Assembly (NCBI GenBank): GCA_965216605.1
Contig: CBDCGG010000002.1
Span: forward strand, 239,645-303,644
Reading direction: 5' to 3'
From: Alphaproteobacteria bacterium
Lineage (GTDB): Bacteria; Pseudomonadota; Alphaproteobacteria; JABAAW01
Length of the DNA stretch: 64,000 nucleotides
Positions 56,306-59,841 of this stretch are shown here, piece by piece; the first letter of the stretch is position 1, and each line of letters begins with the position of its first letter. A program made the position numbers and the translations under genes. The notes beneath the pieces are model-generated. The model did no database searches. It was not told the origin of the DNA and was given only the letters and a program-made list of their open reading frames with translations.

Positions 56306-56425
56306 GACGGCAACGCCCTACTCTTCCACGCCACGAGGACGCAGTACCATCGGCGCAGGAGGCTTTCACGTTCGAGTTCGGAAAGGGATCGGGTGTTGAG
56401 CCCTCCGCTATGATCGCCGCCCCGT
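56306..56425 (-). rRNA. rrf: 5S ribosomal RNA
   Basis: Reverse complement ...GGCGGCGATCATAGCGGAGGGCTCAACACCCGATCCCTTTCCGAACTCGAACGTGAAAGCCTCCTGCGCCGATGGTACTGCGTCCTCGTGGCGTGGAAGAGTAGGGCGTTGCCGTC matches the 5S consensus (CCGAACTC.GAAGTGAAAC, GCGCCGATGGTA, GAGAGTAGG). Confidence 0.85.
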
Positions 56426-56563
56426 CACTGCACGGAGATAAAGTATAAATTTTTTGCGACAAATTTGTCGTTTTTTGTTTTGAGAACGCTTTTCAATTTG
56501 AATTTCTGTCACAGCACTATCTATGGGCTGAGGCGCTGCTTGCGTTTTGTCGATGCAAAGAGC

Positions 56564-59410
56564 GTTAAGGTCAATCGAGGGATTAGTACCGGTCGGCTCC
56601 ACATGTTACCATGCTTCCACCTCCGGCCTATCGACGTGGTGTTCTTCCACGGCTCTGATAGCGATATCTGTTTTCGAGGTTGGCTTCCCGCTTAGATGCT
56701 TTCAGCGGTTATCCAGACCGTACTTGGCTACCCGGCACTGCCACTGGCGTGACAACCGGTACACTATAGGTACGTCCACTCCGGTCCTCTCGTACTAGGA
56801 GCAGCTTCTCTCAGATATCGAACACCCACGGCAGATAGGGACCGAACTGTCTCACGACGTTCTAAACCCAACTCACGTACCACTTTAAATGGCGAACAGC
56901 CATACCCTTGGGACCTGCTTCAGCCCCAGGATGTGATGAGTCGACATCGAGGTGCCAAACACCCCCGTCGATGTGAACTCTTGGGGGGTATCAGCCTGTT
57001 ATCCCCGGCGTACCTTTTATCCGTTGAGCGATGGCCCTTCCACTCGGGACCACCGGATCACTATGACCGACTTTCGTCTCTGTTCGGCCCGTCGGCCTTA
57101 CAGTCAGGCAGGCTTGTGCCATTGCGCTCATCGGCTGATTTCCGACCAGCCTGAGCCTACCATTGCGCGCCTCCGTTACTCTTTGGGAGGCGACCGCCCC
57201 AGTCAAACTACCCACCACGCAGGGTTCCGGCTCCTACACGGAGTCGGTTAGATGACAAATACAGCAAGGGTGGTATCTCAAGGTTGCCTCCACCTCGACT
57301 AGCGTCGAGGTTTCTCAGGCTCCCACCTATCCTGCACGTGATGCATCTGGCATCACTGCGAAGTTGTAGTAAAGGTGCACGGGGTCTTTCCGTCTAACCG
57401 TGGGAACTCCGCATTTTCACGGAGAGTTCAATTTCGCTGAGTCTGTGTTGGAGACAGTGGGGAGATCGTTGCGCCATTCGTGCAGGTCGGAACTTACCCG
57501 ACAAGGAATTTCGCTACCTTAGGACCGTTATAGTTACGGCCGCCGTTCACCGGGGCTTCGTTCAGGAGCTTGCACCCCATCCCTTAACCTTCCGGCACCG
57601 GGCAGGCGTCAGACCCTATACTTCGTCTTACGACTTTGCAGAGTCCTGTGTTTTTAGTAAACAGTCGCCACCCCTGATTTCGTGCCCCCCGCCACGGCTT
57701 GCGCCACGGCGGGGCCTCCTTTTCCCGAAGTTACGGAGGTAATTTGCCGAGTTCCTTCAACACAGTTTTCTCACGCGCCTTGGTATGCTCAACCGATCCA
57801 CCAGTGTCGGTTTAGGGTACGGTCTAAAGCTGGGGTTCTTTCCAGGAACGACTTCCCCTGCCTTCGCAATCCGATCAGCGAAGACAAGAAAGGTCATCCG
57901 TCACCTCCAGCAGGCTCAGGAATATTAACCTGATTCCCATCGTCTACGGCTTTCGCCCTCGACTTAGGGGCCGGCTCACCCTACGCGGACGAGCCTTGCG
58001 TAGGAAACCTTGGATTCTCGGCGGGGGTGATTCTCACACCCCTTGACGCTACTCATGTCAGCATTCTCACTTCCGATACCTCCACGACACCTTACGATGC
58101 CGCTTCACAGGCTTACGGAACGCTCCGCTACCGATGCAACAGAATCTGTCCGTCGTCAGTTGAAACTTCTCTTACGCCCCCATTTTTGCTTTGCTTTTTT
58201 TTGTTTCTCTAGCCTCTCCTTGAAGGAGAGACTCTTGACGACGCACAGATTCTGTCACATCCCGCAGCTTCGGTATACGGCTTGAGCCCCGTTACATCTT
58301 CGACGCAGGAAGGCTTGATTAGACCAGTGAGCTATTACGCTTTCTTTAAAGGATGGCTGCTTCTAAGCCAACCTCCTGGCTGTCTTGGCTTTCCCACATT
58401 CTTTCCCACTTAGCCGTAATTTAGGGACCTTAGCTGGCGGTCAGGGCTGTTTCCCTTTTGACGACGGACCTTAGCACCCGCCGTCTGTCTGCCGTGCTGA
58501 ATCCTACAGTATTCGGAGTTTGGTTAGGTTTGGTAAGGCTCGCGCCCCCCTAGCCCATCCAGTGCTCTACCCCTGCAGGAGATCACACGACGCACTACCT
58601 AAATAGTTTTCGCGGAGAACCAGCTATTTCCGAGTTTGATTGGCCTTTCACCCCTAGCCACAGATCATCCGAAGATTTTGCAACATCTAACGGTTCGGCC
58701 CTCCAATGCGTGTTACCGCATCTTCAGCCTGTCCATGGCTAGCTCACTCGGTTTCGGGTCTTATACTACGAACTAAAGCGCCCTTTTAAGACTCGCTTTC
58801 GCTACGCCTACGCCTCACGGCTTAAGCTTGCTCGTAACACAAAGTCGCTGACCCATTATGCAAAAGGTACGCGATCACCGCACGAAGCGGCTCTCGCAGG
58901 TTGTAGGCACTCGGTTTCAGGGACTCTTTCACTCCCCGCATTGGGGTACTTTTCACCTTTCCCTCACGGTACTTGTTCACTATCGGTCGTCGAGGAGTAT
59001 TTAGGCTTGGAGGGTGGTCCCCCCACATTCAGGCAAGATGTCACGTGTCCCGCCCTACTCTAGAACAAATTATGCAGATTCGTGTACGGGGCTATCACCC
59101 TCTATGGCGCGCCGTTCCAGACGTCTTCCTCTTCAAGCATAATCAGCTACTGGCCTCTTCCGCGTTCGCTCGCCGCTACTAACGGAATCTCGGTTGATGT
59201 CTCTTCCTCCGGCTAATGAGATGTTTCAGTTCGCCGGGTTCGCTTCGACATGCTAATGCATGCCGATTCCCCACTAAGGGGAGGGTTTTCCCATTCGGAT
59301 ATTTTCGGATCACAGTGTGCTGGCAACTCCCCGAAACTTTTCGCAGCCTGCCACGTCCTTCATCGCCTCTCGACGCCAAGGCATTCGCCAAGCGCCCTTT
59401 GCTACCTTTC
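56564..59410 (-). rRNA. rrl: 23S ribosomal RNA with a helix-45 intervening/expansion sequence
   Basis: Reverse complement contains universally conserved 23S blocks from the 5' domain (GGCGATGAAGGACGTG) to the 3' end (GATAACAGGCTGATA..., GTTTAGAACGTCGTGAGACAGTTCGGTCCCTATCTGCCGTGGG). Leader (59412-59465) and trailer (56520-56560) are complementary, forming a processing stem. Ends approximate. Confidence 0.9.
58150..58256 (-). other. intervening sequence / extended hairpin in 23S helix 45
   Basis: About 100 extra nt relative to the E. coli helix-45 region, forming a long hairpin (GACAGAATCTGTGCGTCGTCAAGAG...AGTTTCAACTGACGACGGACAGATTCTGTTGC). A known IVS site in alphaproteobacterial 23S. Confidence 0.6.
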
Positions 59411-59760
59411 GCTCTTTGCTGACAATTCGCAAGCAGCGCCTCAACTCATAGAGGGCTGCTGTTGACAGAAATTGTGCGTTCTTTCCGATTTCACAAAACT
59501 CCGTGCGCAACACGCCGACAGAGCCAGAAAATCGAATTCTTACAAACGATGGACTTGTTCAATAGTTCCCCCCCGAAACGCCTCTCGTATTGCAAATACA
59601 AGCAGCGCGAAGCCCATAATAGCCGAGCCAGTACTAGAGCGCAAGATAAAAAGCACAAAAAACGCCTCAACGATAAAAAAACATGCAAGCGAAAATTTTC
59701 CCATCCTCCCCTCTTTTGCTCCCCTCTTTGTGCGCCTTGCCTCAAAGCAACTTGCGTAGA

Positions 59761-59841
59761 AAACGACGCTCTCATGTCGCATTCTCACTTCCGATAACGC
59801 TTCTCAGGCTTACGGAACGCTCCGCTAGCGATGCAACAGAA
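59761..59841 (-). repeat. partial, internally deleted duplicate of a 23S segment (the region flanking the helix-45 IVS) in the rRNA leader
   Basis: ctcatgtcgcattctcacttccgata...aggcttacggaacgctccgctagcgatgcaacagaatctgtccgtcg matches 58052-58154 except for a 28-nt internal gap, same orientation as the rRNA. Confidence 0.8.

Follow-up and report, generated by a model that had tools for sequence, protein, structure and literature searches.

Introduction

The loop of helix 45 in 23S rRNA (about nucleotides 1164–1185 in Escherichia coli) can hold intervening sequences (IVSs) whose excision by RNase III is not followed by re-ligation, so that the 23S rRNA is fragmented, and IVSs carrying open reading frames (ORFs) of the S23p type occur in Leptospira, Coxiella and Xanthomonas. 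Helix-45 IVSs excised by RNase III have been described in Salmonella, Campylobacter, Leptospira and Coxiella burnetii; in some an ORF lies on the rRNA sense strand, and the ORF-carrying forms undergo reductive evolution (PMC4990558; PMC2672173). The IVS of Coxiella has no promoter and its Shine-Dalgarno sequence is removed by RNase III (PMC4990558). The origin of IVSs in bacterial rRNA has been an open question since their first description, the published ideas being that they are transposition remnants, or else mobile elements, with an ORF that formerly had a role in mobility (PMC4990558). Insertion sequence (IS) elements have also been found within 23S genes, in Nostoc PCC 7120 and Deinococcus radiodurans (PMC2672173). 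A limited search of the literature returned no account of part of an IVS having been copied to another place in a genome along with flanking 23S sequence, and no earlier lipoprotein-carrying IVS or ectopic 23S fragment.

The locus described here lies in a window of 64,000 nucleotides, the whole stretch of DNA that was analysed, and combines a short helix-45 IVS with a partial copy of 23S sequence upstream of the 23S gene. This pseudo-copy is likely to be a fossil, the 3′ end of a cluster of lipoprotein genes that was copied out of the helix-45 IVS and whose counterpart within the 23S gene was later lost.

Results

A 23S-5S unit without a 16S gene

The minus strand of the window carries a 23S-5S unit with a leader/trailer stem, as the initial annotation had described.

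56305–56421, minus strand: 5S rRNA gene (Rfam RF00001, 76 bits, full model)
56520–56551, minus strand: trailer arm of the 23S processing stem (inverted repeat, 32 nt, 88% complementary to 59421–59452)
56561–59411, minus strand: 23S rRNA gene, full length, with the helix-45 insertion (Rfam RF02541, LSU_rRNA_bacteria, 2679 bits, model 1–2925)
59421–59452, minus strand: leader arm of the 23S processing stem (inverted-repeat partner of 56520–56551)
59616–59644, minus strand: probable 23S-5S promoter, TTGCGC-N17-TATTAT with T-rich sequence upstream (read from the sequence; downstream of the pseudo-copy)

The missing 16S and spacer tRNA noted initially are confirmed. No SSU match to Rfam is present in the whole 64-kb window, the only tRNAs found there by ARAGORN are tRNA-Val and tRNA-Thr near 42–43 kb, and no 16S lies within 10 kb beyond purB in L081 and L082, the syntenic contigs of two relatives. 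Protein genes fill the 4.6 kb upstream of the 23S gene, where small ORFs on the minus strand are followed by rpe and purB, both on the plus strand, up to the end of the window. The small lipoprotein ORFs and rpe had been recognised before as neighbours on the other strand, but the ORFs share the strand of the 23S gene and only rpe is opposite. rRNA genes count as unlinked when 16S and 23S lie more than 1500 bp from each other (bioRxiv 10.1101/705046). The 16S and 23S genes here are further apart than this and share no spacer, and as in other unlinked genes 23S and 5S remain paired, with their own promoter and processing stem. The separation itself is unremarkable. The lineage is not the Rickettsiales-like one that had been suggested: the genome has ~56% G+C and a purB gene, and the closest named relatives of its PurB (~52% identity) are metagenome-assembled genomes of Rhodospirillales or Geminicoccales type. 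The host is an uncultured alphaproteobacterium outside the Rickettsiales; its relatives are represented by contigs of ~1.5–1.9 Mb.

The TTGCGC-N17-TATTAT motif is conserved in the window, L081, L089, L082, L083/L085 and L086, suggesting that it is probably the 23S-5S promoter, although a consensus promoter scan did not pick it up at 59616–59644. The pseudo-copy had been placed in the rRNA leader; with this promoter it would instead lie upstream of the transcription unit.

The helix-45 IVS

58133–58261, minus strand: helix-45 IVS (stem arms 58236–58261 and 58133–58158)

In a local alignment to the Rfam LSU model an insert of 108 nt is found at model position 1218/1219, in the loop of the hairpin at 1205–1226 and directly before GGUAG..GAGCG, the helix-45 location. 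Its two arms (26 nt, 88% complementary) form the long RNase III-type stem expected of the ~100-nt hairpin first reported, and the fold is highly stable (MFE −69.1 kcal/mol, z = −9.7), with 0 of 200 shuffles reaching the same stability. Cleavage of this stem by RNase III, which would also cut the leader/trailer stem, is predicted to give 23S fragments of ~1150 and 1572 nt (~1.15 and 1.57 kb). The interior between the arms consists of a small hairpin and an A-rich tract and contains no ORF. While the arms are conserved across the window, L082, L081, L089 and L091, the length of the interior ranges from 77 nt in the window through ~104 nt in L082 and ~457 nt in L081 (L089 is similar) to ~890 nt in L091. 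In its site, its long inverted-repeat stem and its very variable length and content among close relatives, the element resembles known helix-45 IVSs.

A lipoprotein cassette ending in 23S sequence

Between rpe and the 23S gene lies a cassette of ~1.2 kb bounded by a direct repeat.

59730–59756, minus strand: target-site duplication, right copy (27 nt in the window; 29 nt and perfect in L081 and L089)
59757–60931, minus strand: whole cassette (promoter, genes A, A′ and B, 23S tail), bounded by the duplicated 29-mer
59765–59873, minus strand: 23S pseudo-copy, the 3′ end of the cassette (blastn and alignment to the 23S gene and to the L081 IVS)
59865–60197, minus strand: lipoprotein gene B (3′ part intact as an 85-aa ORF, 59865–60122)
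60194–60490, minus strand: lipoprotein gene A′, a second family-A paralogue (comparison with L081)
60504–60721, minus strand: lipoprotein gene A, MKKSIIAAAALVGVVTLGGC... (comparison with L081)
60722–60826, minus strand: cassette 5′UTR with two hairpins and a GGAGGA ribosome-binding site (homology to relatives)
60827–60854, minus strand: cassette promoter TTGACA-16-TATTGT with TG, preceded by an A-rich tract (promoter scan)
60932–60960, minus strand: target-site duplication, left copy, in the upstream region of rpe

The cassette thus contains three small lipoprotein genes behind a promoter of sigma-70 type, and after them the 3′ stem arm of helix 45 and ~90 nt of 23S. In L081 and L089 the 29-bp repeat CGCAAGGCGTGCTTTGAGGCAAGGCGCAC flanks it perfectly on both sides. 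There is no transposase gene in the cassette, nor do its ends have a motif in common or form inverted repeats. The ORFs of the relatives' IVSs match no Pfam family at E ≤ 1 other than a weak lipid-attachment site. The product of gene B is identical to P0138. For the cassette proteins, Pfam and a structure model of gene B with a PDB fold search yielded no more than a generic Ig-like beta sandwich, from which no function could be assigned.

Within the pseudo-copy, positions 59855–59788 are 91% identical to 58158–58091 of the 23S gene (68 nt, blastn E = 2e-22), and a second segment, 59796–59765, matches 58078–58045 (94% over 34 nt, blastn). The 21 nt deleted between them remove the tip of helix 46. 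Positions 59830–59856 correspond to the 3′ arm of the IVS stem and 59765–59829 to the 3′ strand of helix 45 and helix 46 without its tip, while about 17 nt further upstream (59857–59873) match the interior of the IVS and the end of gene B, an extension that is seen against the L081 IVS. The near end of the copy is 354 nt upstream of the 5′ end of the 23S gene. The duplicate described in the initial annotation is real, IVS-associated, in the same orientation and ~350 bp upstream, though it spans ~92–109 nt and not 80. Nor does it begin exactly at the IVS boundary, as had been thought, since it includes the whole 3′ stem arm and the homology to the IVS interior.

Substitutions between the window and L081 cassettes amount to ~0.8%, against 8–16% divergence in their flanks. 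Relative to L081 the window cassette shows hardly any substitutions but at least 14 small deletions: in gene A they bring in a stop after 23 codons, gene A′ has lost its start codon and is frameshifted, and the signal-peptide part of gene B is in a different frame. The hisS gene of the window is also split over two frames. Together the small deletions and the split hisS make the local consensus quality doubtful.

Uninterrupted sites and gene-carrying IVSs in relatives

Comparison of the regions upstream of the 23S gene in relatives, proposed from the outset as a check, identified both the occupied and the empty state of the site. In L083, L085 and L086 rpe adjoins the 23S gene across a 379-nt spacer with a single copy of the 29-mer, no cassette and no pseudo-copy; L081, L089, L082 and L090 have the copy. 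A second ectopic cassette is found in L082, with the same 5′UTR hairpin, a different ORF coding for a zinc-knuckle protein and a 23S tail of 126 nt. It is flanked by 41-bp target duplications, 93% identical to each other; this site is uninterrupted in L081 and L083, and the target sequence has one match each in L086 and L089. The distal tail is 79% identical to the 23S of its host and has no IVS 3′ arm. Cassettes have therefore been inserted with duplication of the target at both the leader and the distal site, each of which exists as a single uninterrupted target in relatives, and the duplications (29 and 41 bp) are not of one fixed short length.

The genes of the cassette are also found inside 23S. 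In L091 the helix-45 insert of ~890 nt has the order 23S flank, 5′ arm, promoter, gene A (64 aa), gene B (116 aa), 3′ arm and full-length helix 46, and the stretch from the 3′ arm to helix 46 is 98.4% identical to window 58158–58035, with no deletion. L091 is a 1-kb short-read scaffold, which counts against the reading proposed below, although both of its junctions agree with the long contigs L081 and L089 and its genes differ from those of L090. The IVSs of L081 and L089 (~490 nt) have retained gene A only, as an intact ORF with in-frame indels, together with a remnant of gene B, its final ~20 nt, ahead of the 3′ arm, and those of the window and L082 have kept the hairpin and the A-rich start. 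The interior of the L081 IVS (6488–6313) is 76% identical over 203 nt (E = 1e-41) to the promoter, 5′UTR and signal peptide of the cassette and matches window 60870–60662 with E = 3e-38, and its end, with the 3′ arm and adjoining 23S, matches window 59873–59765. A homologous promoter lies within the IVS in L081/L089 (TTGTCA-16-TATCAT) and in L091 (TTGCAA-16-TACCAT), and the 5′UTR of the cassette is homologous both to the IVS 5′UTRs of L081, L089 and L091 and to that of the L082 zinc-knuckle cassette. The IVS-borne and cassette-borne lipoproteins belong to the same two clade-restricted families, with only 14 and 3 clusters among 5.8 billion. The first ~50 nt of the cassette show weak similarity to the inner 5′ arm region, the score being reached by 6/500 shuffles for L081, 15/500 for L089 and 93/500 for L091, and the left limit of the copy is thus placed only loosely. 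The 23-nt 3′ arm of the IVS had no match in a metagenome contig collection, from which the lineage is absent.

Compared with S23p-type IVSs, the cargo in the relatives is one or two genes for proteins with a signal peptide and lipobox and not an ORF for a four-helix bundle, and in contrast to the Coxiella IVS these elements carry a sigma-70-type promoter, a structured 5′UTR and a GGAGGA site well inside. IS elements in 23S genes are similar in being kilobase-sized, ORF-bearing inserts with homologous copies elsewhere in the genome; here, however, there is neither a transposase nor terminal inverted repeats, the target duplications, at 29 and 41 bp, exceed the 2–14 bp of IS elements, and the ectopic copies contain host 23S sequence. 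Several of the relatives' contigs end exactly at this locus.

Discussion

Proposed copying out of the 23S gene

From these comparisons we infer the direction of transfer, the order of events, the RNase III processing and the expression as follows. The ancestral helix-45 IVS would have held a small lipoprotein operon with its own promoter inside 23S. A segment starting at or near the inner end of the IVS 5′ arm, and comprising the cargo (promoter, 5′UTR, genes A and B), the IVS 3′ arm and ~110 nt of flanking 23S (the 3′ strand of helix 45 and helix 46), would have been copied into the rpe-23S spacer ~320 bp upstream of the 5′ end of the 23S gene, duplicating 29 bp of target. Gene A presumably duplicated within the ectopic copy afterwards, and the 23S tail, being useless, would have decayed, with loss of 21 nt in the window and far more advanced decay in L082. 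The redundant cargo in the 23S gene would then have been deleted, partly in L081 and L089 and completely in the window and L082. Today the 23S-5S unit would be transcribed from its own promoter downstream of the fossil, and the cassette promoter would drive the lipoprotein genes towards the rRNA unit, the 23S tail being non-functional 3′ sequence. The IVS-associated recombination proposed initially was right in spirit, the specific event probably being that an IVS was copied out of the 23S gene with the genes it carried.

Transfer from the 23S gene to the spacer is indicated because 23S sequence can originate only in the 23S gene. The match of both cassette ends to IVS content supports copying out, as do L091, which has the predicted ancestral state, and L081 and L089, which correspond to intermediates. 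The two protein families common to IVS and cassette point the same way, and the zinc-knuckle cassette of L082 adds a second case that is independent of the first. That the tails fold like shuffles, and that the copy upstream of 23S in L082 has decayed to ~70% identity, is as expected for a relic. The divergences do not fit one simple clock, as the window tail is 91% identical to 23S, the L082 leader tail ~70%, and the cassettes differ by ~0.8% against 8–16% in the flanks, so that later gene conversion or exchange has to be invoked. We know of no enzyme or mechanism that accounts for target duplications of 29 and 41 bp. One-sided donor flanks, long variable duplications and the lack of both terminal repeats and an encoded transposase are features shared with 3′ transduction by eukaryotic non-LTR retrotransposons and with processed pseudogenes; the likeness is one of analogy only, the present case being bacterial, without poly-A and with no reverse transcriptase identified.

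More speculatively, and it would seem rather unlikely, the helix-45 IVSs of this group could be mobile gene-expression cassettes in 23S that spawn ectopic copies with 23S flank. Each would bring together a promoter, a structured 5′UTR and an interchangeable ORF, for lipoproteins or for a CCHC zinc-knuckle protein, within the cell's most heavily transcribed gene. Their route might be retroposition of a pre-23S fragment whose processing was incomplete, RNase III having cut the 5′ arm alone; this would account for the inclusion of the promoter, the one-sided rRNA flank, the lack of terminal repeats and the long, variable duplications.

Alternative explanations

An unlikely alternative reverses the direction, with a chromosomal or mobile lipoprotein cassette invading helix 45 by way of its 23S-like tail as a homology arm, which would make the IVS cargo secondary. 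The tail and the A-rich/promoter region do provide two patches of homology between cassette and IVS, the near-identity of the cassette coding region in the window and L081 between much more divergent flanks suggests exchange between lineages, and the distal tail in L082, less similar to host 23S (79%) than its target duplications are to each other (93%), may predate that insertion. However, the tail must itself first derive from a 23S gene, and a cassette with neither the 5′ arm nor the 5′ 23S flank would have to enter helix 45 by a double crossover without a left arm. The same sample series, moreover, contains both a cargo-carrying IVS (L091) and uninterrupted leader sites (L083, L085, L086).

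It is very improbable that the 23S fragment is functional, either as a mimic binding a ribosomal protein or assembly factor, as a decoy for the IVS 5′ arm that affects RNase III, or as an mRNA 3′ end or terminator. A 23S tail does follow the ORF in L090 and at both of the unrelated sites of insertion. Over 27 nt the genuine 5′ arm has 85% complementarity to the copied 3′ arm, and at the junction GCGAC...GUCGUUUUCU there is a weak hairpin that leads into a U tract. Against this, two of the copies, the pseudo-copy included, fold no better than shuffles (z = +0.45 and +0.86), and the pseudo-copy and cassette match no Rfam family apart from a chance sub-threshold snoRNA, so that neither a conserved structure nor a known family is found. 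The copy also lies upstream of the probable rRNA promoter, and the 3′ arm is missing from the distal copy in L082. The decay differs from one copy to the next, with the tip of helix 46 deleted in the window, ~70% identity left in L082 and truncation after ~35 nt of 23S in L090, a pattern that weakly refutes a function.

The initial annotation had suggested that the fragment might be a trace left when a rearrangement parted 16S from 23S, and it does sit where the 16S-23S spacer would once have been. This is exceedingly improbable and was rejected on the uninterrupted sites of L083, L085 and L086, which have the same rpe-23S adjacency, also without 16S, and neither the fragment nor a second 29-mer. 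The split is accordingly older than the insertion, and the two events are independent. In addition, the target duplication encloses the fragment along with three genes, and in the more distant L087 and L088 guaB adjoins rpe with no rRNA there, pointing to relocation as a separate, older event.

An assembly or consensus artefact, in which repeat-induced misjoining brought 23S reads into the leader, is scarcely credible despite the small deletions and the split hisS noted above, and was rejected because the pseudo-copy recurs in independent assemblies: at 6 of 68 positions it departs from the genuine 23S, it is present with its own substitutions and the identical 21-nt deletion in two long-contig assemblies made independently from other samples (L081 and L089), and diverged forms occur in L082 and L090.

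Implications for IVS content

The relatives form a graded series, from two genes in the IVS (L091) through one (L081, L089) to none (the window, L082), accompanied by a dated escape copy that contains rRNA sequence. The series implies that the content of an IVS can be ordinary, promoter-driven cellular genes, that it is exchanged with other chromosomal sites and that short IVSs without an ORF can be deletion remnants of gene-carrying ones. Gene expression from inside an rRNA precursor and the mechanism that moves such segments have now become testable. In practice, stray rRNA fragments beside small genes can mislead both rRNA annotation and the assembly of metagenomic bins.

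23S-5S unit and its neighbourhood

The rRNA genes of the window lie on the minus strand, with small ORFs upstream of the 23S gene on the same strand and, beyond these, rpe and purB, which reach the window end:

56305-56421, minus strand, 5S rRNA (Rfam)
56561-59411, minus strand, complete bacterial 23S rRNA (Rfam)
true start near 60974, plus strand, rpe, beyond the small ORFs
61642-63003, plus strand, purB, after rpe

No small-subunit rRNA was matched by Rfam in the whole 64 kb, and the only tRNA genes found in the window by ARAGORN are tRNA-Val and tRNA-Thr near 42-43 kb. A 32-nt inverted repeat, 88% complementary (56520-56551 and 59421-59452), brackets the 23S gene and is the usual processing stem. 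The motif TTGCGC-N17-TATTAT with its T-rich upstream sequence (59644-59616, minus strand) is kept in every relative, also where the insertion described below is absent, and judged by its sequence is likely to be the rRNA promoter.

Relatives were compared through loci fetched around PurB homologues. Close homologues of the window PurB are found only in uncultured genomes (93, 85, 83, 82 and 79% identity), after which identity drops to 60%; the named matches, at about 52%, are from Rhodospirillales or Geminicoccales-type alphaproteobacterial MAGs, and nothing points to the Rickettsiales-like affinity proposed in the initial annotation. The gene order gltX, hypothetical gene, PMT_2 glycosyltransferase, 5S, 23S, small ORFs, rpe, purB is common to three relatives, L081 (535-kb contig), L089 (1.90 Mb) and L082 (1.50 Mb). 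Of these, L081 and L082 were scanned with Rfam, and in neither does a 16S lie within 10 kb past purB. In L083, L085 and L086 rpe-purB is present and the contig stops just upstream of rpe; L083 and L085, the two scanned, end within the 23S, with only 379 nt between rpe and the 23S 5' end. In L087 and L088 (PurB 57-60% identity) guaB adjoins rpe and no rRNA is present there, so the rRNA unit would have moved beside rpe only in the closer clade. Given the arrangement shared by its members, the unlinked 23S-5S is therefore a stable trait of this clade; such unlinking is widespread (bioRxiv 10.1101/705046).

Helix-45 IVS and partial 23S copy

In the window 23S, an insert of 108 nt falls, by local Rfam alignment, in the hairpin loop at model positions 1205-1226, corresponding to helix 45. 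The arms of this intervening sequence (IVS), 58236-58261 and 58133-58158, pair as a 26-bp stem and the element has a minimum free energy of -69.1 kcal/mol, against -34.0 +/- 3.6 in shuffles; the 23S is presumably processed by RNase III.

The partial 23S copy that had been noticed upstream of the 23S is real and required only small corrections. Positions 59855-59788 match 58158-58091 with 91% identity (E = 2e-22), and the match resumes at 59796-59765 past a 21-nt gap where the tip of helix 46 has been lost. Because the probable rRNA promoter is at 59644-59616, the copy would lie upstream of the rRNA transcription unit proper. The pseudo-copies neither fold better than shuffled sequence nor match an RNA family in Rfam, and they are regarded as relics; the window feature is a non-functional relic beside two ordinary features, the unlinked rRNA genes and the helix-45 IVS.

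The copy ends an inserted gene cassette

In L081 and L089 a perfect 29-bp direct repeat, CGCAAGGCGTGCTTTGAGGCAAGGCGCAC, encloses the sequence that separates rpe from the region of the rRNA promoter; L083, L085 and L086 have a single copy, across which the flanks run on directly. The window copies are at 60932-60960 and 59730-59756, a few bases being missing from the latter. In the direction of the rRNA genes, the intervening 1.2 kb holds an A-rich tract and promoter, then a 5'UTR, three ORFs (A, A' and B) and finally an IVS 3' arm with a 23S segment.

60854-60827, minus strand, cassette promoter TTGACA-16-TATTGT, preceded by an A-rich tract (sequence)

The 5'UTR is structured and has a GGAGGA ribosome-binding site, and each of the three small ORFs encodes a signal peptide and lipobox. 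The 3' arm copy and 23S segment follow directly after the stop of the third ORF, and their end, ...GAGAGCGTCGTTTTCTA, adjoins the repeat. L082 has a cassette at the same place, its 23S tail far more decayed (~70% identity), and the insertion is thus older than the divergence of these lineages; the lineage of L083, L085 and L086 is without it. Since these three keep rpe-23S with one 29-mer and no cassette, the reading preferred in the initial annotation, that the copy is a scar left when 16S and 23S separated, is refuted. Its alternative, IVS-associated recombination, is upheld and becomes specific as the copying of a gene-carrying IVS.

In L090, a free cassette (A, A', B), the pseudo-copy (955-1180) ends after the 3' arm and ~35 nt of 23S, beyond which is unrelated G+C-rich sequence containing a 62-nt rpe-like piece, reflecting either another rearrangement or a cassette at a third place.

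By comparison with L081, at least 14 small deletions disrupt all three lipoprotein genes of the window, and every one of these deletions is on the window side. Over 59750-60770 the two differ by ~8 substitutions per kb, as against 80-160 per kb with few indels in the flanking genes, about ten times rarer in the cassette stretch. The disrupted genes, and a split hisS, may be real pseudogenes following a recent cassette exchange, or local consensus errors; the identical truncated product was found in a deposited 1.63-Mb contig.

IVSs that carry lipoprotein genes

The L081 23S reaches 3234 nt because of a helix-45 IVS with an interior of ~457 nt and stem arms as in the window. Within this interior are a lipoprotein ORF of 62 aa and, ahead of it, a promoter (TTGTCA-16-TATCAT), a 5'UTR and GGAGGA. 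The interior matches the leader cassette from its promoter through the 5'UTR to the signal-peptide region with 76% identity over 203 nt (E = 1e-41; E = 3e-38 against window 60870-60662). The ~20 nt with which it closes ahead of the 3' arm (..TTTAAATGATGA..) correspond to the end of the cassette's third gene, and the IVS homology of the window fragment therefore reaches 59873, past any 23S sequence. L089 has an IVS of the same kind, 90% identical to that of L081, with a 68-aa ORF; in-frame indels and numerous replacements distinguish the two ORFs, while the non-coding sequence on either side is 96-99% identical.

The encoded proteins form family A (...G.GK.AVS.N...P.[IV]YDC..G..C) and family B (AGE[VL]RAKY...GLTPD...YR.EITHPDTGEVY...VEAPFK). 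In a set of 5.8 billion protein clusters only 14 belong to A and 3 to B, all from this clade. For gene B (window 59865-60197), the family B model P0137 predicts a small Ig-like beta sandwich, with pLDDT about 90 in the mature part. The model had no PDB match with E < 0.001, the best weak matches being to CnaB/SpyCatcher-like and pilin domains.

An ancestral IVS with A followed by B had been predicted beforehand, and L091, a 1059-nt scaffold, was then reached via a family-A match. Its order is 23S flank, IVS 5' arm, hairpin, A-rich tract, promoter (TTGCAA-16-TACCAT), 5'UTR, A (64 aa), B (116 aa), 3' arm and helix 46, the last undeleted, with 98.4% identity to the window 23S. Its genes are only about 50-55% identical to those of L090, from the same sample series, so that L091 is no trivial misjoin of the L090 cassette.

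A conserved 5'UTR is common to every cassette and IVS cargo (window 60722-60826, minus strand; L081 6345-6470; L089; L091 200-300; L082 16405-16520) and has two hairpins, CUGCC..GGCAG and then GCCUCCGCGC..GCGCGAGAGGC with GUUU after, of which the second has paired stem changes in the zinc-knuckle cassette of L082 described below. It matches no Rfam family and could be an attenuator or mRNA-stabilising element; promoter activity and expression at the locus are likewise predicted.

Excision of helix-45 IVSs by RNase III is classical, and some carry an ORF of the S23p family, as in Leptospira, Coxiella, Xanthomonas and Brucella. The Coxiella IVS ORF is without a promoter, loses its Shine-Dalgarno on excision and is decaying (PMC4990558), and 23S genes of Nostoc and Deinococcus contain IS elements with transposase genes (PMC2672173). 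In a literature coverage that was incomplete, no report was found of an IVS with lipoprotein genes under their own promoter, nor of an IVS copied elsewhere together with an rRNA flank; together, the window and its relatives document a new form of IVS biology.

A second insertion in L082

L082 has a further 23S fragment (16119-15996) 8 kb from its rRNA genes, with 79% identity to its own 23S. It forms the tail of an insertion of ~650 bp with a 41-bp duplication of the neighbouring gene's end on both sides.

L082 15946-16675, minus strand, ectopic cassette: promoter, 5'UTR hairpin, 97-aa ORF, 126-nt 23S tail (sequence)

L081 and L083 have this site without any insertion, and one match to the target sequence is present in L086 and one in L089. 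The promoter is TTGACA..TATTGT, and the 5'UTR has the hairpin motif of the IVS cargos with paired stem changes (CCTCCGCGC..GCGCGAGAGG against CCTCTAGCGC..GCGCTAGGGG). The ORF differs: its 97-aa product contains three zinc knuckles of the CCHC type (Pfam PF00098, E = 4e-13), a domain rare in bacteria. This is a second, independent event combining an expression module of the IVS-cargo type, a one-sided 23S flank and a long target duplication.

Origin and mechanism

As the 23S sequence adjoining the cassette can only come from a 23S gene, a segment was probably copied into the rpe-23S spacer; it would have begun close to where the 5' arm ends on its inner side and taken in the cargo, the 3' arm and about 110 nt of 23S. 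The IVSs of the window, L082, L081 and L089 all keep a small hairpin and A-rich tract past the 5' arm, and the most likely reading is that the short IVSs (window, L082) and one-gene IVSs (L081, L089) arose independently by deletion from an IVS that carried genes.

Copying may have been by a DNA template switch or repair-type capture or, speculatively, through a pre-23S fragment, cut by RNase III in the 5' arm only, reverse-transcribed and inserted. The RNA route would account for the promoter being included and the 3' flank alone being carried; the left boundary of the copied segment is mapped only tentatively. The lack of a transposase in the cassettes, ends that are not repeats and have no common motif, and the duplications of 29 and 41 bp do not fit an insertion sequence.

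Other features of the window

The hisS gene is split over two frames (31704-32402 and 32329-32739), its 3' part being low in G+C, and 32800-33000 has only 20% G+C. The GC skew switches sign locally near 33400, between hisS and prfA, and the prmC ORF adjoining this region has only 210 aa; 31704-33400 may hold an origin or terminus of replication, or contain indel errors. At 28184-29764 (plus strand) a full-length MttB-family (trimethylamine methyltransferase-like) protein is encoded (Pfam E = 7e-211), in a small alphaproteobacterial genome. One further RNA gene is ordinary:

22857-22951, plus strand, small SRP RNA (Rfam, 47 bits)
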